Shown in pieces: positions 3,280 to 59,013 of a stretch of 64,000 bases of DNA. Source of the stretch: Ignavibacteriales bacterium (lineage in GTDB: Bacteria; Bacillota_I; Bacilli_A; RF39; UBA660); NCBI GenBank assembly GCA_050259235.1, contig JBLNAG010000002.1, positions 24,382-88,381 of the forward strand, read 5' to 3'. Position numbers and translations under genes: made by a program. Below the pieces are notes generated by a model. The model was not told where the DNA came from. It worked only from the letters and a program-made list of their open reading frames with translations, and made no database searches. Every line of letters begins with the position of its first letter. Positions within the stretch are counted from its first letter, which is position 1.

Positions 3280-4540
3280 TGTTATTACCTCCTTCTAAAA
3301 AGAAAATGGTATCTAAGTGTACTTTTTTAGCAAAGTTAATAATCATTTGACGAGTAACTCTTTCAATACTTTTCTTACGTTCTTCAAGTAAATCATAACC
3401 CAAATATTGATGAGTAACATATAAATTTATAATTGAATTTGGTGAATCTTCTAATTGCTTAAAAGATGCTAAATAAGTAACTTTAGCTTTTTCAATATCA
3501 CTTTCAGTAAATTCTCCTCTTTCCATTTTTCTTACTTCTTCTCTAATAATTCTAGTTGCTTTATTATATTTATCAGCATTAATACCAGCAGATATAGTCA
3601 TAGTACTAATAATAGATGAAAATGAAGCACTAATAGAGTAACATAGTGAATTCTTTTCACGAACATTTTTAAATAGTTTCGAGTCTGCTCCTCCACCTAA
3701 AATATATGAATATATATTTGCTATGTATTGTCTTTCAAATAATGTAAGTGGATCTGATTTAAATCCCATACATAAATAACTTTGATTAATATCCTTTTTT
3801 TCCTTAACCTTTTTTATTTTACTATTAATCCTTTTGTGATTATAAAAATGTTCTTTAGATGGTTTTTTAGCTGTTTTAATATTAAAATTATGCAAAATGA
3901 TATTTTTTATTTTATCTTCATCAATATCTCCAATAACAAAAATATCAATTAAATCACTCTTTAGGACATTTTGATAATATCTATATAAATTTTCTTCATT
4001 TATTTTTTCTAAATCTTCTATATATCCTACTCCACGATAAGATATTTTTTCTTTTTTTCCCATTACTTCATACATTCTTGCATTAGTATATTGAGTATTA
4101 TTTTCTTCAAATGAATTAATATCATCCTTCAAAATATTATATGCTTTTTTAAAACTTTCCTTTTCAAACTTACCACCAACAACATTAGGTTTTAATAATA
4201 AATCAAAGAAAAATTGTAATGACTTTTCATTCATTCCCTTTTCAGTATACTTTTCATGCAAAAAACTACAATTATAACTCATAATTGCATATTCACCAGA
4301 ACTAAATGTTCCACTACTATAACCTAGATTATATAATTCTTCTGTTGCAATCTCCAATAATCTTCTAGTTGGATAATTACAAGAAGACTCTAACAAAACA
4401 TTTACTAAAATATTTCGGAAAGTAATATCTTCTTTATCAAACAATTTCTTAAAATTTATTTTTACAGTAATTGTTTTAAATTTATCTGTTTTAATTAGAT
4501 GAATATTATAAGCAGGTGTTTCATATTTTCGATATTTCAT
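3272..4540 (-). CDS. M16-family peptidase paralog, probable non-catalytic partner
   Basis: 422 aa with M16-like fold and length but no HxxEH motif; translationally coupled to the downstream M16 gene. Confidence 0.7.
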   Translation of the reverse strand: MKYRKYETPAYNIHLIKTDKFKTITVKINFKKLFDKEDITFRNILVNVLLESSCNYPTRRLLEIATEELYNLGYSSGTFSSGEYAIMSYNCSFLHEKYTEKGMNEKSLQFFFDLLLKPNVVGGKFEKESFKKAYNILKDDINSFEENNTQYTNARMYEVMGKKEKISYRGVGYIEDLEKINEENLYRYYQNVLKSDLIDIFVIGDIDEDKIKNIILHNFNIKTAKKPSKEHFYNHKRINSKIKKVKEKKDINQSYLCMGFKSDPLTLFERQYIANIYSYILGGGADSKLFKNVREKNSLCYSISASFSSIISTMTISAGINADKYNKATRIIREEVRKMERGEFTESDIEKAKVTYLASFKQLEDSPNSIINLYVTHQYLGYDLLEERKKSIERVTRQMIINFAKKVHLDTIFFLEGGNNNG

Positions 4541-4552
4541 TCAAACCTCCTG

Positions 4553-5251
4553 TTAGATAGATTCTAAAGCTAATTCAATCATTTTAGTGAAAGATGTTTG
4601 TCTCTCATCACTAGTAGTTTCTTCATGAGTTACTAAATGATCTGAGACAGTTAATATGCATGCAGCTTTTTTATTTAAAACATTGGCATTATGAAATAAA
4701 GCAAATGATTCCATTTCAACAGCAATACAATTATATTTTTCATATACTTCTTTAAAATTATCGTTTTCTCTATAGAAAACATCACTAGAATGAATTACTC
4801 CTTCAATTAAATTAATGTTTTTTTCTTTAGCTTTTAATCTAATCTTCTCATTAATATATTCGTTAGATTTCAAAATATTGTCTCTGCATCCATTTTGATT
4901 ATATGCATAACTTGATTCTGAAAACGAAGATAATGTTAAAACAACATCATATAGTTTTAAATTATCGGTATAAGCACCACAAGAGCCTACTCTAATAATA
5001 GTATCTACATCATAAAATTTAAATAATTCATATGAATATATACCAATACTAGGCATTCCCATACCTGATGCCATAGCAGTAACTCTTTTTCCATTATAAG
5101 TTCCAGTATAACCTAACATACCTCTTACATCATTGACTAGTTTATAATTTTCTAAATAAGTTTCTGCAATGAATTTTGCGCGAAGAGGATCTCCCGGCAT
5201 AATTACTATACTTGCAATATCTTCCTTTTTAGCTTCTATATGTGCTGTCAT
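4553..5251 (-). CDS. deoD: purine nucleoside phosphorylase, DeoD type
   Basis: 232 aa; the motif run GDPLRAKFIAE...GMGMPS...VGSCG matches PNP/UDP family 1. Confidence 0.9.
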   Translation of the reverse strand: MTAHIEAKKEDIASIVIMPGDPLRAKFIAETYLENYKLVNDVRGMLGYTGTYNGKRVTAMASGMGMPSIGIYSYELFKFYDVDTIIRVGSCGAYTDNLKLYDVVLTLSSFSESSYAYNQNGCRDNILKSNEYINEKIRLKAKEKNINLIEGVIHSSDVFYRENDNFKEVYEKYNCIAVEMESFALFHNANVLNKKAACILTVSDHLVTHEETTSDERQTSFTKMIELALESI

Positions 5252-9388: not shown

Positions 9389-9739
9389 TTAATCTTTTGG
9401 TTTAAAAATAAGCGATAAGACAAAGGAGAATACTATAGCAGCTGTTATTCCGGAAGCTGTTAAATCAAACATTCCCATTAATAATCCCATATATCCAAGA
9501 CTACCAGCTGTATCTAAAGCTCCATGAATTAATAAGTGACCGAAACTAGTAATAGGAACTAATGCCCCACCACCAGCCCACAATATTAATCTGTCATATA
9601 AATTGAAGATATCTAAAAAAGAACCTAAAACAACAAAGATAGTTGTAATATGACCAGGAGTTAATTTAGTGTTATCTAATATTAATTGTCCAATTAGACA
9701 GACAACTCCCGCAAATATAAAGGCATTCAAATATATCAT
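9389..9739 (-). CDS. spoVAEB: stage V sporulation protein AE (SpoVAEB-like)
   Basis: 116-aa membrane protein of the SpoVAC/SpoVAEB family, immediately downstream of spoVAD. Confidence 0.8.
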   Translation of the reverse strand: MIYLNAFIFAGVVCLIGQLILDNTKLTPGHITTIFVVLGSFLDIFNLYDRLILWAGGGALVPITSFGHLLIHGALDTAGSLGYMGLLMGMFDLTASGITAAIVFSFVLSLIFKPKD

Positions 9740-10737
9740 TCTATTACCTCCAAACTAATTGCGTGAGCAATACTTGGAATGGTTAATTTTTCATTTACCA
9801 TTGTTGGGGACATTAAAGCGCCAGTCGCTACTAATAGGACACGATCTAATTCACCATTTTTCATCTTTTGAAGTATATAACTATAAGTAACTAAAGGAGC
9901 ACAGGCTGGTCCACTAGCTCCTGAATATACTGGCTGTTTATTTAAATCATAAATCATACATGCTGTATCATCATAGTTCTTTAATTTTATTCCATATTCT
10001 GTTTTAATATATTCCTTTAAAATATCTTTTCCAATAGCACCTAAATCACCAGTTAAAATAAGATCGTAATAACCAGCTTCCCTTTTGGTATCACGTAAAT
10101 GACGATAAATAGTGGATGCGGCGGCTGGAGCCATAGCTGCTCCCATATGATATACATCTTTACATCCAATATCAGTAGTAACTCCTATTGTTGCGCTTTC
10201 AATACGAATTCCTGCTTTTTTAGAATCAAGATAAGCACTTGCTCCACCAGTTGATGTAAATGTTGTAGTCTTTTTTTTCGGTCCACCATATTCGGTCGGA
10301 TATCTAAATTGTTTTTCTGCAGCATTATTATGAGAGGATGTTGTACATATACAATTCTTTATTTGTTTTGCTTCAATCATGTTAGCCCCTATTATTAAGC
10401 CTTCAACACTAGTTGCACAAGCACTATATATGCCAAGATAAGGAATACCTAAACTACTAGCAGCATAATTAGACGCAACAATTTGATTTAATAAATCACC
10501 TGATATTAATAAATCAACATCAAATTTTGTTCTCTTAATTTTGGTTAATAAAATATCAACACTTTCTTCAATTAATTTACTTTCTGCTTGTTCCCATGTA
10601 TTCATTCCAAAATACAAGTCATCGTAACTCTTATCAAAAAATTTACTTAATGGTCCTTTTGATTCATATGGTCCAGTAATAGTACTAACTTCATTTATAT
10701 ACACATTATTATATTTAAATGTCATATTAAGCACCAA
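9736..10737 (-). CDS. spoVAD: stage V sporulation protein AD
   Basis: 333 aa with a thiolase/ketoacyl-synthase-like fold and a SpoVAD-typical N-terminus (TGPYESKGPL); overlaps both spoVAC and spoVAE. Confidence 0.85.
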   Translation of the reverse strand: MVLNMTFKYNNVYINEVSTITGPYESKGPLSKFFDKSYDDLYFGMNTWEQAESKLIEESVDILLTKIKRTKFDVDLLISGDLLNQIVASNYAASSLGIPYLGIYSACATSVEGLIIGANMIEAKQIKNCICTTSSHNNAAEKQFRYPTEYGGPKKKTTTFTSTGGASAYLDSKKAGIRIESATIGVTTDIGCKDVYHMGAAMAPAAASTIYRHLRDTKREAGYYDLILTGDLGAIGKDILKEYIKTEYGIKLKNYDDTACMIYDLNKQPVYSGASGPACAPLVTYSYILQKMKNGELDRVLLVATGALMSPTMVNEKLTIPSIAHAISLEVIE

Positions 10738-11167
10738 ACATTAATAATCTTAATGTCCCAAAAAAGTATGCACTAACTACACCATATATAATAACTGAAC
10801 CTGCTAATTTAAGCATATTAGCACCAATACCTGTCACTAAACCTTCTTTACGATATTCTAAAGCTGCACTCATCATTGCATGAGCAAAACCGGTAATTGG
10901 AATTATTAGACCACATTTAGCAAAATTAACCCATTTATCAAAAAAACCTAGACAGGTAAGAAGACATCCTAAAAATATCAATGTTATAATCATAAAAATA
11001 GATGCTTCAGTACTTGAAATATGGAAAAGAAATGAATAAATATCAATAAAAAATTGTCCTATTATTCCCATAATTCCCCCAATAAAAAACGCTATCATTG
11101 CATTATATAAAATATTTTCCTTTGGGGTTTTTCTATCCACTAACTCTTTATATTTGCTTTTATCCAT
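10727..11167 (-). CDS. spoVAC: stage V sporulation protein AC
   Basis: 146 aa with four TM helices, typical SpoVAC size and sequence. Confidence 0.85.
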   Translation of the reverse strand: MDKSKYKELVDRKTPKENILYNAMIAFFIGGIMGIIGQFFIDIYSFLFHISSTEASIFMIITLIFLGCLLTCLGFFDKWVNFAKCGLIIPITGFAHAMMSAALEYRKEGLVTGIGANMLKLAGSVIIYGVVSAYFFGTLRLLMFGA

Positions 11168-11228
11168 AATATTCCTCCTAGAATTATTATGAATAAGGTT
11201 TTATTTTTTTATACAAAAAAACAGTCAA

Positions 11229-11594
11229 TTACGAATATTGACTGTCTTGTTCAACAATATTAAAAGTTCCATCGACTCCTGCTCGTTCATAGTCACTACC
11301 ACCAACAAGTTGCATAATAAAACTAACTACAAATGGTAGTAAGAAAATTATAGCACCCGCAATTAATCTTTTAAAGGAAGTATTCATTGCTTTCTTTAAA
11401 GCCTCGTTATCTTGTGAAGTAACTGCCTTCGCAAAATCAACCGAACAAATTATAACTAATATAACTGGTACAACAATACAAATTATTCTAATAATTACTT
11501 CAATTATATCTAGAACTCCACCAAAATCACTTTGTAAATCTGAAATAATATCTAATAACATAATTTCACTCCTATACTGTTTATATTTTAGCAT
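11229..11594 (-). CDS. hypothetical small membrane protein between sigF and spoVAC
   Basis: 121 aa with two TM segments and no HATPase motifs, so it is not SpoIIAB. Confidence 0.4.
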   Translation of the reverse strand: MLKYKQYRSEIMLLDIISDLQSDFGGVLDIIEVIIRIICIVVPVILVIICSVDFAKAVTSQDNEALKKAMNTSFKRLIAGAIIFLLPFVVSFIMQLVGGSDYERAGVDGTFNIVEQDSQYS

Positions 11595-11616: not shown

Positions 11617-12264
11617 TTAGGCCGCTAAATTATTTTTCATCTTAACTAATATTTTCTTTTCTTGTCTTGATACCTGTACTTGACTTATTCCTAATACTTT
11701 TGCAGCTTCATTTTGTGTTAAATCTTCCATATATCTCTTTTCAATTAATTCCTTTTCTGATTGTTTTAGTGCTTCTATTTCTTCTCTTAAAGCTAATAAA
11801 GTATCCATATCAGTTTGTCTTTTAGTAATTACTTCATGCAAAGACATATCATTAACTGGTTCATCAATGCTTTGAGTTAAATTATTAGATTTCACAGCTT
11901 CCACTACAAATATCTCAGGAATTTCTAAAAAACTTGCTAATTCACTAATAGTTGGTTCACGCATTAATTTTTGCGTTAATAATATTTTAGCTTTTTCTAT
12001 TCTTAAATTTCTTTTAGATATATCACGACTAATCTTAATACTCTTATCCTCTCTAACACACTTTTTCATTTCACCTAAAATATATGGGTAAGCATAAGTA
12101 CTAAACTTAACATTCATATTAGGATCATAATTATTATAAGCATTAATTAATCCTAAAACCCCTACTTGAAACAAATCATCCTTGTGTGGATAATTATTAA
12201 AATAATGAGTCATACCATGAATCAATCTCTGATTTTCAATAATTGCTTGATCTAAATTTTCCAT
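11617..12264 (-). CDS. sigF: sporulation sigma factor of the SigF/SigG family (RNA polymerase sigma-70 family), N-terminally short
   Basis: Region 2 (DLFQVGVLGLINAYNNYDP...FSTYAYPYILGEMKK) and region 4 HTH (LTQNEAAKVLGISQVQVSRQEKK). A good RBS (aaggagaaaatATG) sits right after spoIIAA. It is 215 aa against about 255 for canonical SigF. Confidence 0.8.
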   Translation of the reverse strand: MENLDQAIIENQRLIHGMTHYFNNYPHKDDLFQVGVLGLINAYNNYDPNMNVKFSTYAYPYILGEMKKCVREDKSIKISRDISKRNLRIEKAKILLTQKLMREPTISELASFLEIPEIFVVEAVKSNNLTQSIDEPVNDMSLHEVITKRQTDMDTLLALREEIEALKQSEKELIEKRYMEDLTQNEAAKVLGISQVQVSRQEKKILVKMKNNLAA

Positions 12265-12274
12265 ATTTTCTCCT

Positions 12275-12622
12275 TTATAAATTAATGATGTTTATAGCTG
12301 CTAACTCATCACTTGCTTCATACATATAATTTAACAGTCGACTATGCTTAATTCTCTCCTTTACTAAATCATTATCTATTCCACACACTAAGCTCTTACC
12401 ATTATTATTTCTACATATTTCATAATTGTAAAGCAGTGTATTTATTCCTTTAATATCTATTGATGTTAGATTAGAAATATTAAAAACAATGTTTCTAATT
12501 CCATTATCTTTTATCAATTTAGTGACTTCTTTATTTAACTTATCAACTGTTCTTTTAGTTAGCATTCCTTCTAATCTTACAAAAAGAATTCCCTTCCTAA
12601 ATTCCATAGCTATGTCTAACAA
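12275..12622 (-). CDS. spoIIAA: anti-sigma-factor antagonist (STAS domain), SpoIIAA-like
   Basis: 115-aa STAS fold with a phosphorylatable Ser in NLTSIDIKGIN, directly upstream of the sigma factor gene. Confidence 0.75.
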   Translation of the reverse strand: MLDIAMEFRKGILFVRLEGMLTKRTVDKLNKEVTKLIKDNGIRNIVFNISNLTSIDIKGINTLLYNYEICRNNNGKSLVCGIDNDLVKERIKHSRLLNYMYEASDELAAINIINL

Positions 12623-12688
12623 GATATCACCTTCCCATATAATTTAGCACATTTTTTTAAACTCTTATACCGATACGACAAAACTAGT

Positions 12689-14188
12689 TTATTTTTTTAA
12701 TTTATACTTTATTTTGAACACAAATATCGTTATTAATACAATTATTAAATATATAAATAATAATGTTTTATTAAGTACTGTACTCTTTTTAATAACAAAT
12801 GAAGGACTTAAAGATTCTTTATTCTTATTTAATTCTTTATTTTTAAGTTGTAATGTTAATATATCATTATTAAACTTATTAATTAAATCATCTTTACCTT
12901 TTAATATTTCTTTTATATTTATATATTGATTATTAATAATTGTATTTAAATTATTAATTTGTTTTTTTAAACTTTGATTTTCATTTATTTTATAATTTAA
13001 AGCATCAATTAAATTTTGTTTTATATCAACCATAACATCTTTCGTGATTGTCTTATAAGGAAGAATATAATTAACTTTATATGTACCATTTATATCTTTA
13101 TCTAAATTACTAGTTATCTTTATATCATTTACCGTTGACTCTAAAATAAAATCTTTTAAATTAATATCTTTATTATCTATTATTAAATCTTTTTTTATAA
13201 CAACTTTATCACGTGTCTGGGATCTGTATAAAGTAATAGTTTCACCTTTATATGGATAATCATCATTTCCTATTTCACTATATCCATCCATATAATGATT
13301 AATTAGATTATAATGACGATATAAAATATCCTTATATTTATATCCTTTAATAGGATTTATAACACGAGTTGGAAATAACTCAGGAATAGTATTAGAAATC
13401 CCAGATTCACTATATTCTGGATTCTTAATTACTAAGTCTTGATATGTATAATTAAATGGTTCGATATCAGAAGTTGAACCATTTTTAAATATGTAACTAA
13501 ACAGTTCTTCAGCATAAATTAAATCATTATTTTCTTTTTCCCTACTAACACTTATCTTAAATCTCTTAACACTTTCTTGTTCATCGTATAAGTACATTAC
13601 AACTTTAAAATCATTCAAATTATAGTAATCTTTTAAATCAACAATTAACTCATTTCCATTTTTTATTCTTGATTGATTTTCACGAGTAATTCCATTATTT
13701 ATATATTTATCAAAACTACTATTACATTCTGTACATAAATAATCATAATTTATCTTTTGATTATTAATATAGATATTTAATTCTGGTATATTGAAGTATC
13801 CATTACTTCCTTCAACATCTTTAATATGGATATATCTAATTTTTAGCATATCTTTATATTCATATATATCTTTTTTAATAATAAGACGATTAGGAATAAT
13901 TTCCGGTTCTTGTATGAACCACTCACTCCAATCACTAAGAATGTAATCACCTTTATCAATAAAAGGATAATTCACATCATTGCTTCCCTCAACATAATAA
14001 TCTCCCATACTTTTTTCGGTATTATACCAACTATATAATACTTTCTTTTCTACTTTAACTAAATCAGATTCCAACACTTCTGTTTGACTATAGTCTGAGA
14101 AAGAAGAATATGGAGAATAATAAATATCACTAGCCAAGACTCTACTATTTAAACTAAATAGTAACAATATAAAAATTATTTTTTTCAT
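12689..14188 (-). CDS. hypothetical secreted protein with a C-terminal coiled coil and TM anchor
   Basis: 499 aa with an N-terminal signal peptide, an Asn/Tyr/Lys-rich body, a C-terminal heptad-like segment and a terminal hydrophobic anchor with a KYKLKK tail. Confidence 0.5.
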   Translation of the reverse strand: MKKIIFILLLFSLNSRVLASDIYYSPYSSFSDYSQTEVLESDLVKVEKKVLYSWYNTEKSMGDYYVEGSNDVNYPFIDKGDYILSDWSEWFIQEPEIIPNRLIIKKDIYEYKDMLKIRYIHIKDVEGSNGYFNIPELNIYINNQKINYDYLCTECNSSFDKYINNGITRENQSRIKNGNELIVDLKDYYNLNDFKVVMYLYDEQESVKRFKISVSREKENNDLIYAEELFSYIFKNGSTSDIEPFNYTYQDLVIKNPEYSESGISNTIPELFPTRVINPIKGYKYKDILYRHYNLINHYMDGYSEIGNDDYPYKGETITLYRSQTRDKVVIKKDLIIDNKDINLKDFILESTVNDIKITSNLDKDINGTYKVNYILPYKTITKDVMVDIKQNLIDALNYKINENQSLKKQINNLNTIINNQYINIKEILKGKDDLINKFNNDILTLQLKNKELNKNKESLSPSFVIKKSTVLNKTLLFIYLIIVLITIFVFKIKYKLKK

Positions 14189-48724: not shown

Positions 48725-51556
48725 TTATTCTATTGGGTACCTATATATAGGATATTTTTGAGAAATTTCTATATTAACACTTTCAAATATTTTAATAATC
48801 AAGTGTTCCTTTAGGTATTCATCAATATCGATGTTATCTTTTAACAAAAATTGAGGAGGATTATCTTTTAATTCTTTAACCATCTTTGTATTATTTGAAA
48901 CATCAATTAAAGAAATTTGGCGTGTTCCTTCAGAATTTAAATCGTCATATAAATCTTCTTGAAGTCTATTTTTATAGATTCCCTCAATAGATTTTTTACT
49001 TAGAATAATCGCACAATTATCTTCGAAATAAAAGCCTTCTATAACAGGAATTTTGACTTTATCTTTTTTATAATAATAAACATATCTTTCTTCCTTATCA
49101 TAATATTTTATTTTATTCGAAATATAATAATAAGGAACCAATATAACGATGTCAGATTTGTCTGGAAATGTTTTAATTATTTCATCAAGGGAATCCTCTG
49201 TTATTTCTATACTTTTTTTGTACAATTCAGTTAAGAAAAATTCATTTTCTGCTTCAATTATAGCATTAGCATATTCTTTACCAATAAATTTCACAGAATT
49301 ACCTGGCTCTTCAATAAAATAATCTTTATTTATGAATTGATTAAATCCTTTTGATTCTTTTATGCTGTTTTCGTTAATTATCCATTTCTTTCCATCAAAA
49401 AGAAAATTTGAAATTTTATCATTTCTGTTATCTAATAAATAGTTAATTTCTTCCCTAAATTTATCAATGACATCATTCGAAAGAGATGTATTTAAAATTT
49501 CATTTTTCTTTTCTTCAATGCATTTCTCCAATTTCAAATTTAAGTAATTGATTAAATCATTTTTATATGTGTCTTTTTTATCTGGTGGATATTTTAAAAT
49601 AGATTCTGCAAAATAATCATATTTCTTCAACTTATCAATGAAATTCTTAAATAAATATTCATTTTTTTTATTTACTATATTTAATAACTCTAATTTATTT
49701 TGCTCTATTCTAATACCATTATAATACGCAATTAAAGTTAAGGAACTTATTTCATCAAACTGTATTGTAATTAGGCCTTGATGCTTATTTTCAGGTTCAT
49801 TGAATTCCAAAAAGTGCCACGAAGATATAAGTTCATTATATTTTCCCTCTTTATTTAACTCCAAATTCAATTCTAATATGTCAGCCACATTATACCCTAA
49901 AAACCAATTATGAATCGTTTTTACTATAACTTTTCTGATGTTTTCTGCATTTTCTGATTTTGCTTTATTAAACTTATATATCAGCCAAGAAATAGCCCCG
50001 ATTTTAACTATATTTTCCGGAATAAGATATTCCATCGATTTTATATAAGCTTTCTTATTATTTAATATGAATGATTCTTTATAATCCTCATCCCCATCAT
50101 ACAATTCAGAATCTTTGATTCTATTAGTCGCAAAAAGACTTCCATTCACAGAATATATTCTACTTGAGTTTTGAGGGAATACACTCGTTATAACAGAATA
50201 TTTTTCCTTTCCAATTGCATCAAATATAATTTGCTGTTTTAAATTTAAGAAGTAATATGAAACATTTATTTCATCAAATTTTCCTGCTGTTATTTTTTCA
50301 TAGAAAGACAAATCATTACTAAGTTTTTCGAACTCTAAATCTGTTTTTAAATCACTAAGTCGCAAATAGAAATACATACTATAGTATTTTTTAAATTCAT
50401 TAAAATTATTTTTATTTTTGGCTTCTGATGATAATAACAACGAAAACTCTATTATTTGTTTTTCAAATTTCTTGTAATTAAACCTAATATTCCTCATTTG
50501 ACGGAAAATTTTATCTAAAAAATCATTATCATTTGTTTCAATAAAAGCTTTAAAGAACTGAATTATTTCCTTTTGATATTTATCTGCATCAAATGTATTA
50601 TTTTCTTTATAAGAATTTAATAGATCAGAAAAAATATTATTTATATCTCCTTCCACCATATTTCTATCATCAACGTTAACCGCTTTTATTCTTATTGAGT
50701 TTAAAATTTTATTTTCTTCAATTTTCAATTCTTTTTTAACTCTTAAAATAGATTCACCTTCTTTAATATAAGAACCTACAACTTTCTTTAATATAAATAA
50801 TTCTTTATTATTTTTTTGTTCTTTATTGGAAGCATCATTTATTTGAGAACTATTGGTGTCATATTCATTATTTTTATTTTTTTTAACTAATTTACCTAAA
50901 TATTTAAAATCGATATTATCAATATAACCAGTTTCTTTGCTGTATATATCCGTGTACTCGTCTTTATCTCCAAAAAAACCGTGCATTTCATCATAACTTA
51001 TAAAATCGTATTTTGCTAATTCTTTTTCAAAATTTGGATACTTACTTTTTATATCATTTATGTTTTTTTCAAAATTATCTTTTCGCTTTTCCAAAAATTT
51101 TTTGAATTTCCTATTACTTTTATCTTCAGATAAGAATATATTAATGAAATTTTTGAAATAACATAATAACATAATATTTATTGTTACTACAAGTGCTGTT
51201 ATTACATATTTTATTACTATGAAATCACAATAAAGGGAAACTATCATCAATAAAAATGTAATTAAAGAATACTTAATAAGTTTAACTATACCTGATTGTT
51301 CTACTAAGAATGGTAAATGCGTTTCTCTCTTTTTATTTTTATTTTCAAATATAAATATTGATAGTGATATTAAATATGCTGAGAATCCAACAAACACTGC
51401 TAATAGGTAACCATCATAACCATCACTCAAAATAGTTTTATCTATAAAATCTTTAAATGTATTTAATGCTTTCCATATATATGTAATTAAGCTTTGGATT
51501 GTTATCAGCAAAAAGTAAATAAAATCTTTTATAATTTCTAATTTTTCAAATTTCAT
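48725..51556 (-). CDS. large orphan membrane protein (4 N-terminal TM helices plus an ~800-aa cytoplasmic Lys/Asn/Glu-rich domain)
   Basis: 946-aa ORF. The likely start is the ATG at 51556, with the RBS ggggtgg 8 nt upstream. No recognisable catalytic motif and no P-loop. Confidence 0.55.
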   Translation of the reverse strand: MKFEKLEIIKDFIYFLLITIQSLITYIWKALNTFKDFIDKTILSDGYDGYLLAVFVGFSAYLISLSIFIFENKNKKRETHLPFLVEQSGIVKLIKYSLITFLLMIVSLYCDFIVIKYVITALVVTINIMLLCYFKNFINIFLSEDKSNRKFKKFLEKRKDNFEKNINDIKSKYPNFEKELAKYDFISYDEMHGFFGDKDEYTDIYSKETGYIDNIDFKYLGKLVKKNKNNEYDTNSSQINDASNKEQKNNKELFILKKVVGSYIKEGESILRVKKELKIEENKILNSIRIKAVNVDDRNMVEGDINNIFSDLLNSYKENNTFDADKYQKEIIQFFKAFIETNDNDFLDKIFRQMRNIRFNYKKFEKQIIEFSLLLSSEAKNKNNFNEFKKYYSMYFYLRLSDLKTDLEFEKLSNDLSFYEKITAGKFDEINVSYYFLNLKQQIIFDAIGKEKYSVITSVFPQNSSRIYSVNGSLFATNRIKDSELYDGDEDYKESFILNNKKAYIKSMEYLIPENIVKIGAISWLIYKFNKAKSENAENIRKVIVKTIHNWFLGYNVADILELNLELNKEGKYNELISSWHFLEFNEPENKHQGLITIQFDEISSLTLIAYYNGIRIEQNKLELLNIVNKKNEYLFKNFIDKLKKYDYFAESILKYPPDKKDTYKNDLINYLNLKLEKCIEEKKNEILNTSLSNDVIDKFREEINYLLDNRNDKISNFLFDGKKWIINENSIKESKGFNQFINKDYFIEEPGNSVKFIGKEYANAIIEAENEFFLTELYKKSIEITEDSLDEIIKTFPDKSDIVILVPYYYISNKIKYYDKEERYVYYYKKDKVKIPVIEGFYFEDNCAIILSKKSIEGIYKNRLQEDLYDDLNSEGTRQISLIDVSNNTKMVKELKDNPPQFLLKDNIDIDEYLKEHLIIKIFESVNIEISQKYPIYRYPIE

Positions 51557-51711
51557 ATTAACCACCCCAATAAAATAATAGTTACTAAATAAATTATATC
51601 ACAATTGTATAGTAAAAAGTAAAAAGAGACTAATTAAAGTCCCTTTTCAAATGTATTAAGATTGCAAAACCTCCTGTAAAATAAACAAAAAAATTCACAT
51701 AATTTTCATAA

Positions 51712-56265: not shown

Positions 56266-59013
56266 TCAGAATGGTAAATCATACATTGAGTTTTTTAACT
56301 CACTTTTACCTTTAATTCTAATTTTTCTTTCTTTCTTGTATACCTTTGATATATTTTTTATTGTTTCTTCATTTGCTCTATCAAAAGATAATTTTTCTAT
56401 ATCACGTTTAATCCATTTAGGATAATCCTTAGTAATATACTTAATAATCTGATCAATATACAAAGCATCTTTATCATAACAAGATTCAGATATTGTTGGA
56501 ATTGATTCTTTTATTCTTTGTATATCTTCTAAAGAAAGTCCATTTATGATACTAATATACTCATAAAAAGTATTAACTCTTTTAGTCCATAAATCTTCTT
56601 TTTTACTTTTTAGTTGTCCTAAAATGCTATTTAAAAATTCTAAATTACATAACTGCTTATACTCATTATTATTTATATGTCCACAGTTAAAAAGCTCATC
56701 ATAACCTGTAGTTTCTATATCTATTTGCTTATAGCTTAAATAATTGAAAATGACATCAGCATTTTCTTCTGCACTAATGATACAATTATTTACATAGCTA
56801 ATTTTAGATTGTAAAGTTAAATTAAATTTTTCTTGAAGGTAAAAAATATAAAATTTAAAAATCTGTGCTTGTTCTTCTGATAATTGATATCTTATTACTA
56901 ATTCCTCAATTTCCTGATGATGATAATCGTTTATTTTATTACCATTAATATCATTAACTATATTAATTGAATGAACATTAAAGTATAATTTAACTATTTT
57001 ATCAATTGTTAATTCTCTTTTCTCAATCTTTTCTTTAATTTTAAGGTAATTGTAATATTTATTTATGTCTTTAAATACTTCTTCCTTTTCATTATCATAA
57101 AGATCTACTTCTTCAATTACCCTATTAATAACTGCTTCTAACTCTTGATAATTGCTGATTTCCAATATATTGGCTAAGTTTTTTTCTTCACTATGTTCAA
57201 GCATCTCGCAAAATAAAATGCTCTCATATTCTCTTTCAAACCAATTTGAATAATTATCAATTAAATTTAACACATTATTTTCATGAATATACTTTTTTAT
57301 TATCTTCTGTAAGTAAAAAGAGTTAATATTTAATTTTGTAAATAAGTCAGTAATGACAATATCTAAATATTCTAGTTTAGAAGAATGATTATGATATTCT
57401 TCGTAATATTTTGTAAGATTAGGATCATTATCAGGTTGTTTTTCAACAACATGTTCAACAATATGTTCAGGAATAGTAAGTTCACTTTCTTGGCGATATA
57501 CAAGCTCACATAAAATACCACCTTCAGAATTTAAGATTGGCTTTTTATATGATAAATCTATTAAGAGGATATCACGTAATAATTTATAACCATCAGACCC
57601 ATAAATATTTGTTTGATAACGATGCAACGTACCATTATTCCAATCAACTTTAGTTATAAATCCTATATCTTCTAGATAATTTTCATCTTTATATTGAATA
57701 AAATCTATTCTTTCTTCAGTACCAATTTTTTTTCTTAATTTATAAGGCATTTTATCTACTCGTTCTAAAAATTCCTTAATACGTTTTTCATCAAAGCCTA
57801 ACATATCAACCCATTTCGTTTTAGAAATTCTAGGTACTCTTATCTTTTTATAGAAAGATTGATATTTCTGTTCAATCAGCATTCGCTGAAACATTAAATA
57901 ACCTTGTAAGTTAAACTTTTTTTCAAAATAATCAGGGTTATCACTCTTCATAAACTCTAAAACACCAGCACGCATTTTTTGAGTAATTGCAAGTTCTTTA
58001 TCTGAATTAATATATAAGCTATTGCCAATACTTTTTAATTGATCAAGTTTATAAAAATGTTCATAATTATTAATAATACCATATATATCAATTTCTTCTA
58101 GATTATAAAAATTAGTTATAAACATTAAATCTCTATCATTAAGAGGATTATCATTTTTTATTGTTAAAGATATTAAATTATTAGCTACTGTTTGAAGAAA
58201 AAATAGATTGTAAGAAATATTAATATTATATAGTGATAATCTCTTTGAATCTAAATGTAACCCTTTTTGACTCAATTCTAGAAAAACGGTATTAGATAAA
58301 CTAATATCACATTTTGCATAATTAAAACTATCGAGTGAATTAAATGTTGATGCTTCATCACAATAACGTAATGTTTTTAATAAACTTATATTAACATTTT
58401 TATCAAAAATACAATTTACGGTATCAAATCTTACTAAATTATTATAAGAATCAGCAATTATTCTAATATCAGTTTCTCTTATCACTAAATTAGAAATATG
58501 TATATCTCTAACATTTTCTTTCTCTAGTAAATCAACTTTTTTATCCTCATATAGTAGACTATCATCTTGGCTATATATTTTCTTTTCAGCCACATTATTA
58601 TCAATATAATAATGATTATTTTGAATAAAATCATTTAGTAATTCAATTACTTCTTTGATAGAAGCAGTATCTATTCCGTCATACTCAAAATCCTTTTCAA
58701 TATATAAATTACATTTCTTATATTTTTCATTATACCATTCACCATAAATATATTTAGCTTTAATCCCCTTTAATTTAATATATAAATGTGGTTCCTTTAA
58801 TTGTTGATCATGAACTTCTTTTACAACAATAACACCATTTATCACTTTTTCTTCATAATAAGGAGGCAAAGCTTTAAATTTATAATCATCCTTACCAATA
58901 CATCCATCTTCATATATAGCTGCATCATAAATTCTTTTAAGTAATCGCCTAACGCATACTTCTTTCTGCCCAAAACTAATCTCACCCATATAGAAATCCC
59001 CCGTTATTGCCAA
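56266..59013 (-). CDS. large orphan cytoplasmic protein with a leucine-rich-repeat-like central region
   Basis: 915 aa with no signal peptide or TM helix. LxxLxLxxN-like repeats span about residues 200-310 (NISLLKTLRY...LSLYNINISYN...LISLTIKNDNPLN). Confidence 0.5.
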   Translation of the reverse strand: MAITGDFYMGEISFGQKEVCVRRLLKRIYDAAIYEDGCIGKDDYKFKALPPYYEEKVINGVIVVKEVHDQQLKEPHLYIKLKGIKAKYIYGEWYNEKYKKCNLYIEKDFEYDGIDTASIKEVIELLNDFIQNNHYYIDNNVAEKKIYSQDDSLLYEDKKVDLLEKENVRDIHISNLVIRETDIRIIADSYNNLVRFDTVNCIFDKNVNISLLKTLRYCDEASTFNSLDSFNYAKCDISLSNTVFLELSQKGLHLDSKRLSLYNINISYNLFFLQTVANNLISLTIKNDNPLNDRDLMFITNFYNLEEIDIYGIINNYEHFYKLDQLKSIGNSLYINSDKELAITQKMRAGVLEFMKSDNPDYFEKKFNLQGYLMFQRMLIEQKYQSFYKKIRVPRISKTKWVDMLGFDEKRIKEFLERVDKMPYKLRKKIGTEERIDFIQYKDENYLEDIGFITKVDWNNGTLHRYQTNIYGSDGYKLLRDILLIDLSYKKPILNSEGGILCELVYRQESELTIPEHIVEHVVEKQPDNDPNLTKYYEEYHNHSSKLEYLDIVITDLFTKLNINSFYLQKIIKKYIHENNVLNLIDNYSNWFEREYESILFCEMLEHSEEKNLANILEISNYQELEAVINRVIEEVDLYDNEKEEVFKDINKYYNYLKIKEKIEKRELTIDKIVKLYFNVHSINIVNDINGNKINDYHHQEIEELVIRYQLSEEQAQIFKFYIFYLQEKFNLTLQSKISYVNNCIISAEENADVIFNYLSYKQIDIETTGYDELFNCGHINNNEYKQLCNLEFLNSILGQLKSKKEDLWTKRVNTFYEYISIINGLSLEDIQRIKESIPTISESCYDKDALYIDQIIKYITKDYPKWIKRDIEKLSFDRANEETIKNISKVYKKERKIRIKGKSELKNSMYDLPF

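Follow-up and report, generated by a model that had tools for sequence, protein, structure and literature searches.

A spoIIA locus of RF39 bacteria lacks spoIIAB and keeps a remodelled STAS gene coupled to sigF

The activation of SigF by SpoIIAA, SpoIIAB and SpoIIE is a textbook case of cell-specific gene expression in bacteria. How, then, is SigF controlled where a SpoIIAA-like STAS gene and a sigF gene adjoin each other without the gene for the SpoIIAB kinase? This question is raised by a stretch of 64,000 nucleotides (nt) of contig JBLNAG010000002.1 (assembly GCA_050259235.1), hereafter the window, from a bacterium of the order RF39. On its minus strand, a SpoIIAA-derived STAS protein of 115 amino acids (aa) is encoded at 12275..12622, with a TTG start, the Shine-Dalgarno (SD) sequence GGAAGGTGA and a TAA stop at 12277..12275, and a SigF-type sporulation sigma factor of 215 aa follows at 11617..12264, with its ATG at 12264. 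The STAS stop and the sigma ATG are separated by a 10-nt spacer containing AGGAG, and there is thus no space for an intervening gene. A preliminary description of the window had pointed out this pair and its missing spoIIAB. Our data confirm that observation and extend it to the whole order, and its interpretation is partly supported. We are highly confident of the descriptive part, namely that the kinase gene was deleted and that the STAS protein was remodelled, kept under selection and kept coupled to sigF.

The arrangement is widespread. The same protein, with its neighbours in the same order, is present in an independent Logan assembly. When one genome of each GTDB species was scanned, at least 393 stretches matched, of which the best 80 loci were kept. 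Of the 84 related loci whose sigma open reading frame (ORF) is complete, 82 have a STAS ORF that ends between -34 and +12 nt from the sigma start. A sequencing or assembly error that collapsed the region, considered in the preliminary description, can be dismissed as having practically no probability, given that the independent assembly and more than 80 metagenome-assembled genomes (MAGs) from many separate studies agree on the gene order. In locus L053, the STAS and sigma genes are separated by a 285-nt non-coding spacer (4684-4968); a spoIIAB remnant there is ruled out, as this gap has stops in all frames and gave no tblastn match.

A search of 1.84 billion representative proteins indicated the direction of change. 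Short forms of the sigma factor were recovered down to about 150 bits, and SigF proteins of canonical length (236-259 aa) appeared below that score. The nearest long-form relative, P0176 of locus L086, is 43% identical to the window sigma, and the other two (L087 and L088) are close to P0176; all three lie on low-GC contigs (30-33% guanine plus cytosine). Genes in L086 are ordered dacF-STAS-HATPase_c_2-SigF-spoVAC-AD-AE, and those in L087 and L088 STAS-HATPase_c_2-SigF. Because the nearest long-form relatives have the order STAS-SpoIIAB-SigF, we conclude that spoIIAB was deleted in the RF39 lineage. In RF39, a large clade, the spoIIAB-less spoIIA locus is thus the derived state and not a quirk of one genome.

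The naming of this clade deserves a comment. Of its members, Candidatus Coprovivens and Candidatus Faecisoma are named, and both have been assigned to the order RF39 (PMC8035907). Its MAGs have been deposited under the inconsistent names Ignavibacteriales, Muribaculaceae, Lactobacillales, Tenericutes, Mollicutes and Bacilli, and the protein of the window itself carries the record label "Ignavibacteriales bacterium". NCBI labels are unreliable for this lineage.

What has become of the STAS protein after the loss of its kinase gene? It is still recognizable as a SpoIIAA descendant. It matches the Pfam STAS family with 49.5 bits, its closest solved structures are SpoIIAA 1th8_B (variant 1tid_B) and 1auz_A (E values of 1e-13 to 1e-10), and its gene occupies the orthologous spoIIAA position, directly upstream within the sigF operon. 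Divergence is considerable: the protein is 31% identical to SpoIIAA of Bacillus subtilis and 32% identical to that of L086, the nearest canonical relative, and its 51.1 bits against TIGR02886 (SpoIIAA) are well under the equivalog cutoff of 114.75.

Alignment to the SpoIIAA structures showed that the canonical MDSSGLG motif reads IDIKGIN in the window protein, with the phospho-acceptor Ser58 replaced by Ile. Among 79 distinct orthologues, position 58 is occupied by I (32), C (14), M (9), L (9), V (4), Y (3), K (3), S (2), D (1), Q (1) or H (1). Ser58 is thus lost in 77 of them, and 68 carry Ile, Cys, Met, Leu or Val. All five canonical SpoIIAA sequences compared keep Ser58, and the STAS proteins of L086-L088 carry FMDSSGLG or FIDSSGIG. 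The neighbouring residues are retained, Asp57 in 78/79 orthologues (the remaining one is gapped) and Gly60 in 75/79. The protein is a SpoIIAA descendant that is no longer phosphorylatable at the canonical site.

The remodelling extends beyond the serine. Seven residues on which the five canonical SpoIIAA sequences compared all agree (E21, D23, S59, G62, G66, R67 and G95) are replaced in RF39 STAS proteins, and most of the replacements are themselves conserved within RF39 (K23, N61, N66, Y67, N44 and N48). The 1TH8 work reportedly places these positions on the contact face for SpoIIAB, a GHKL protein, with E21, D23, S58, S59, G62 and R67 as presumed contacts. Conservation within the protein is still highest in the beta3-alpha2 docking loop, IDxKGINxLLYNY. 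In 12 informative species pairs, the ratio of nonsynonymous to synonymous substitution rates (dN/dS) is 0.01-0.16 for the STAS gene, equal to or below that of the sigma gene (0.04-0.24). The STAS protein is therefore still under selection, and its gene and the sigma gene experience purifying selection of about equal strength.

Could a kinase, or another anti-sigma factor of the same fold, be encoded elsewhere? Pfam analysis of 28 window ORFs, which include all ORFs from 70 aa upwards that fall into the SpoIIAB size range, detected no HATPase_c, PP2C or SpoIIE domain. The window gave no tblastn match with B. subtilis SpoIIAB (a probe validated against the PDB, E 2e-68), with an unvalidated RsbW probe, or with low-GC SpoIIAB proteins (three in all) taken from the nearest canonical relatives. 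Overall, neither a SpoIIAB-like sequence in the 64-kb window nor a GHKL gene among its scanned ORFs was found, and the same holds for about 5 kb on each side of 85 related loci. For whole genomes, we rely on the survey of RF39, RFN20 and ML615J-28 by Field, Bowerman and Hugenholtz (2024), whose text describes a reduction or absence of spoIIAB and spoIIE in RF39 (PMC10868615).

The preliminary description had proposed either a relocated spoIIAB or a rewired control of SigF. The locus does imply that an anti-sigma factor was relocated or that control was rewired. Loss of the phospho-acceptor and of the canonical SpoIIAB-facing residues argues against a relocated kinase; it is compatible with a kinase-inactive anti-sigma factor. 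An unlinked GHKL-fold anti-sigma factor without kinase activity might thus hold SigF, with the STAS protein as its non-phosphorylated antagonist under the control of redox state, a ligand or abundance. The loss of Ser58 fits this explanation equally well, and a sub-family of STAS proteins with Cys58 (IDCYGIN, 14/79), together with the widely conserved C70 and C80, is in keeping with it. However, the presumed GHKL contacts E21, D23, S58, S59, G62 and R67 are all replaced, which would be unexpected if the partner retained the same fold, and our scans of the window ORFs and the flanks of related loci contained no GHKL gene. Mycobacteria provide a precedent, where control of RsfA is by a disulfide and RsbW1/UsfX is devoid of kinase activity, but there the anti-sigma and sigma genes are joined in the rsbW1-sigF operon (PMC7693655), and the canonical loci seen here likewise link the two. 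The genome survey, as far as its text goes, assessed spoIIAB by KEGG orthology (KO) assignment only and speaks of "reduced presence or complete absence" (PMC10868615), which leaves room for such a factor. On balance, we consider this explanation unlikely, although it is the main rival of the one that we prefer below.

A further question is whether the sigma factor is SigF at all. Its best NCBIfam model is SigF TIGR02885 (175.8 bits, well under the equivalog cutoff of 321.45), with 175 bits against NF004052 (cutoff 311), compared with 141.4 and 128.8 bits for SigG and 106.4 bits for SigB. The closest solved structure is SigF 1l0o_C (E 4e-36), the Pfam sigma regions r2, r3 and r4 are all present, and the gene sits in a spoIIA-spoVA locus. 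The name given to it at the outset is thus borne out by comparison with the SigF, SigG and SigB families. The protein belongs to a family of thousands of members of 213-223 aa from MAGs of uncultured gut "Bacilli/Tenericutes". Ten short forms that are 34-47% identical to the window sigma had SigF or the broader SigB/F/G as best model, never SigG; a second, SigG-like short family, which would make the window sigma a paralogue, was not seen among them. Several near-invariant positions are changed in RF39 SigF (W46Y, R51Y, V90Y, G105K and E115K in Bacillus numbering).

These results also bear on the idea that the STAS-sigma genes are a paralogous pair, with a canonical spoIIAA-spoIIAB-sigF operon elsewhere in the genome. 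We judge this highly improbable. The pair takes the orthologous place, with spoVAC-AD-AE downstream of it as they are in L086, and the longest of the 120 matches listed for the window sigma (53-100% identity) has 232 aa, with no full-length long form among them. The published KO data, as presented in the survey text, point the same way (PMC10868615).

The sigma factor is short at its N-terminus, as first noted, although it lacks about 26-30 aa and not the 40 aa originally given, and such shortness is ordinary. The absent segment corresponds to region 1.2, so that the first residues lie at region 2.1: residue 3 of the window sigma aligns with residue 29 of 1l0o_C and with position 33 of NF004052. 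Reading of the sequence showed that an upstream extension of the ORF is not possible. SigF proteins of 217-227 aa are found in a large group of Clostridia (Zongyangia, Acutalibacteraceae and others); one such locus, L089, was examined, and there a 146-aa HATPase_c_2 (SpoIIAB) gene lies between the STAS gene and the gene for a 221-aa SigF. Because this 221-aa SigF adjoins SpoIIAB, the short N-terminus is unlinked to the loss of spoIIAB, and a tie between the two is ruled out.

The operon and the sporulation elements around it appear to be functional. The region upstream of the STAS gene (12627..12682, minus strand) contains a putative promoter and leader with a Spo0A-box-like TTTGTCGTA at 12682..12674, a GTATAA element at 12670..12665, an extended -10-like TGTGCTAAATTA at 12651..12640 and the SD GGAAGGTGA at 12635..12627. 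The block TTTTGTCGAA-N3-GTATAA-N~13-TGTGCTAAATTA-SD is conserved across 78 distinct related upstream regions. Its Spo0A-box core, TGTCGAA/TTCGACA, is exact in 66 of them and has one mismatch in the other 12, the window included. By comparison with the B. subtilis consensus, we infer Spo0A binding and a sigma-A type promoter upstream of STAS. All genes of the locus are on the minus strand, in the order STAS, sigma, a 121-aa membrane protein ORF, a terminator and spoVAC-AD-AE. The intrinsic terminator (11218..11248) ends the transcription unit, and by eye many related loci likewise show a hairpin with a T-run after the sigma gene.

The genes spoVAC (10727..11167), spoVAD (9736..10737) and spoVAE (9389..9739) were each identified by NCBIfam and Pfam matches, and related loci share their synteny, as does the canonical relative L086. 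Upstream of spoVAC, GTATA-N18-CATAATA at 11185..11214 (minus strand) is a candidate forespore-type promoter; it is the sole match in the window, where 0.13 would be expected by chance, and GTATA-N17/18-CATAATA is conserved upstream of spoVAC in 40 of 42 distinct related loci. This element matches the B. subtilis sigma-G/F forespore consensus, and the assignment of either sigma factor to it is putative. Taken together, the spoVAC-AD-AE synteny, the Spo0A-box promoter and the flanks shared with L086 uphold the original view that this is the genuine spoIIA locus. In about 20 loci, a sigK-like gene for a pro-sigma factor of 231-251 aa (...FTAAYSNNVFPDPLSKEEEE...LIEHNLRLVAHIVKKY) is found within 5 kb of the STAS-sigma pair (for example L003:642-1337 and L010:3258-3974); it has a pro-sequence and, unlike the SigF-like factor, has kept region 1.2.

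Against this background, the pair would very probably not be a relic of a decaying pathway in a lineage that no longer sporulates. We know of no report that sporulation has been seen in RF39. SpoMAG assigns cattle-derived RF39 MAGs a sporulation probability of 0% (PMC12536801), and several sporulation genes are missing according to the survey text (PMC10868615). However, both genes are under strong purifying selection, the promoters are conserved across tens of species, the spoVA genes are intact, a sigK-like pro-sigma gene is present, and we saw no widespread frameshifts in these genes.

We therefore return to the control of SigF. Our preferred explanation, which we put forward tentatively, is that the locus is a streamlined, derived form of the spoIIA locus of an RF39-order bacterium, in which the STAS protein serves as a phosphorylation-independent regulator of SigF. 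The STAS-sigma pair would be made at the onset of sporulation in a fixed ratio, and SigF would be freed from the kinase-phosphatase partner switch of SpoIIAB and SpoIIE. The STAS protein may then act as a stoichiometric regulator of SigF, most likely through a new STAS-SigF contact that either keeps SigF inactive or passes it to core RNA polymerase. Instead of dephosphorylation, differential stability or dilution might bring about its release in the forespore. That the STAS protein acts through direct contact with SigF is a cautious suggestion from gene arrangement, which we favour because the genes stay coupled in nearly all species and no other linked partner is found. The stronger version, in which the STAS protein is itself the anti-sigma factor or an obligatory SigF-binding partner in a two-protein, phosphorylation-free switch, appears doubtful.

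Several points weigh against this explanation. To our knowledge, no STAS protein is known to bind a sigma factor directly, and sporulation has not been observed in RF39. An unlinked anti-sigma factor elsewhere in the RF39 genome is possible, the kinase scans having covered the window and the flanks of related loci. A mirror-tree comparison of 40 genomes, a weak test, gave a partial r of 0.03 for STAS-sigma rate covariation, compared with 0.52 for SpoVAC-SpoVAE, and so lends no support to direct binding. Finally, locus L057 (4300-5000) has the short sigma gene without a STAS ORF upstream; either the STAS protein is dispensable in at least one species or the L057 locus is rearranged.

The last two observations would also be expected if SigF were without post-translational control and the STAS protein did a separate job in sporulation, sharing only the timing of expression. 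The strongly reduced genomes of these bacteria (PMC12306168) are in keeping with such a loss of control. However, the tight STAS-sigma coupling (-34 to +12 nt) in 82/84 loci and the persistence of the docking loop IDxKGINxLLYNY as the best-conserved STAS segment speak against it. Moreover, uncontrolled SigF activity before septation is deleterious in B. subtilis. We regard this explanation as rather improbable.

Neighbouring genes were considered as regulators. The small membrane protein of 121 aa (11229..11594, minus strand; two transmembrane segments predicted by eye) is encoded between the sigma gene and the terminator, and its gene is co-transcribed with the pair in the window, since the terminator (11248..11218) comes after it. 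It has no significant NCBIfam or Pfam family match, only weak, sub-threshold matches to pilin-like proteins of Mycoplasma integrative and conjugative elements (ICE). Among the related loci compared, its homologues are confined to window/L001, L006 and L004/L036; with its presence limited to the closest relatives of the window, a role as general substitute anti-sigma factor is ruled out. Immediately upstream of STAS, a 499-aa protein without a Pfam family is encoded at 12689-14188 (minus strand). Features recognized by eye are a signal peptide, a long stretch that is presumably extracytoplasmic and, at the C-terminus, a coiled coil and a membrane anchor. Its homologues adjoin STAS upstream in at least 48 of 85 RF39 loci, and two of the three canonical relatives, L086 and L087, have dacF (penicillin-binding protein 5, PBP5) in that place. 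We rejected it as an unlikely regulator on account of its extracytoplasmic-type layout and of the promoter that separates it from STAS.

Other features of the window and of related loci are recorded here. Two large ORFs of the window, at 48725-51565 (946 aa) and 56266-59013 (915 aa) on the minus strand, have no significant Pfam match. In L001, a 56-aa sporulation gene of the Cse60 family (PF10957) lies at 3788-3958, between genes for an M23 peptidase (PcsB-like) and a MurJ/SpoVB-like flippase, which adds to the sporulation-related genes of the neighbourhood; the corresponding place in the window would be between about 18294 and 18526. Four 380-aa proteins (P0282, P0286, P0287 and P0288), from several independent contigs, combine HATPase_c_2 with sigma-70 regions 2, 3 and 4; they resemble SpoIIAB-SigF fusions in long-form relatives and may be real, or may be frameshifted or merged gene calls. 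Natural STAS-sigma fusions, sought as Rosetta-stone evidence, were not found; longer matches were duplication or gene-call artefacts or had unrelated N-terminal regions. In L008 (JBAMOY010000001.1, 1,203,482 bp), the one circular genome of the clade, the STAS-sigma locus lies at 584-595 kb, about 49% of the record coordinates. It would be terminus-proximal if the record begins near the origin, a position that would bear on a model of "transient genetic asymmetry".

That RF39 lacks the kinase is already known as an entry in a gene table; the anatomy of the STAS-sigF pair appears to be undescribed. The survey gives presence and absence by KO in a single sentence, and its main text contains neither "spoIIAA" nor "sigF" and appears to make no mention of a retained STAS gene, loss of the phosphoserine, a remodelled surface, selection, operon structure or promoters (PMC10868615). 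We found no literature on a retained, non-phosphorylatable STAS protein beside sigF without SpoIIAB. The spoIIAB gene is among those present in all predicted spore-formers of SpoMAG; if RF39 does sporulate, the non-sporulating calls for its RF39 MAGs would be wrong (PMC12536801).

The first cell-fate switch of sporulation therefore probably works differently in RF39, a lineage with matches in at least 393 species-level genomes that keeps the spoVA genes, sporulation-type promoters and a sigK-like gene with the kinase removed. This suggests that, without the partner switch, compartment-specific SigF activity may either still be achieved or not be needed. The STAS protein probably has a function that is not yet described; if it binds and controls SigF, it would represent a new class of sigma-factor regulator on the STAS fold in an order of gut bacteria. 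The control of SigF without a partner switch is an experimentally tractable question, as the pair is small and a test in B. subtilis or Escherichia coli needs no culture of RF39.

Three known systems provide the frame for comparison. In the mycobacterial SigF system, the STAS antagonist RsfA likewise works unphosphorylated, through redox, and the anti-sigma factor need not be a kinase; however, a GHKL anti-sigma factor is encoded there in the rsbW1-sigF operon, whereas none is linked to the sigma gene here (PMC7693655). The short SigF of Oscillospirales-type Clostridia (217-227 aa) shares the absence of the N-terminal region 1.2, but L089 has SpoIIAB (146 aa, HATPase_c_2) between STAS and sigma. 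From the spoIIA operon of Bacillus and Clostridia, the RF39 locus differs by its lack of a SpoIIAB gene, the change of Ser58 to a hydrophobic residue or Cys and the replacement of canonical invariant residues, and also by the absence or reduction of SpoIIE, which is known from the text of the genome survey (PMC10868615). It nevertheless resembles that operon in its orthologous position, its putative Spo0A-box promoter, its SpoIIAA homologue and a sigma factor closest to SigF, and, as in the clostridial spoIIA locus, spoVAC-AD-AE lie downstream.

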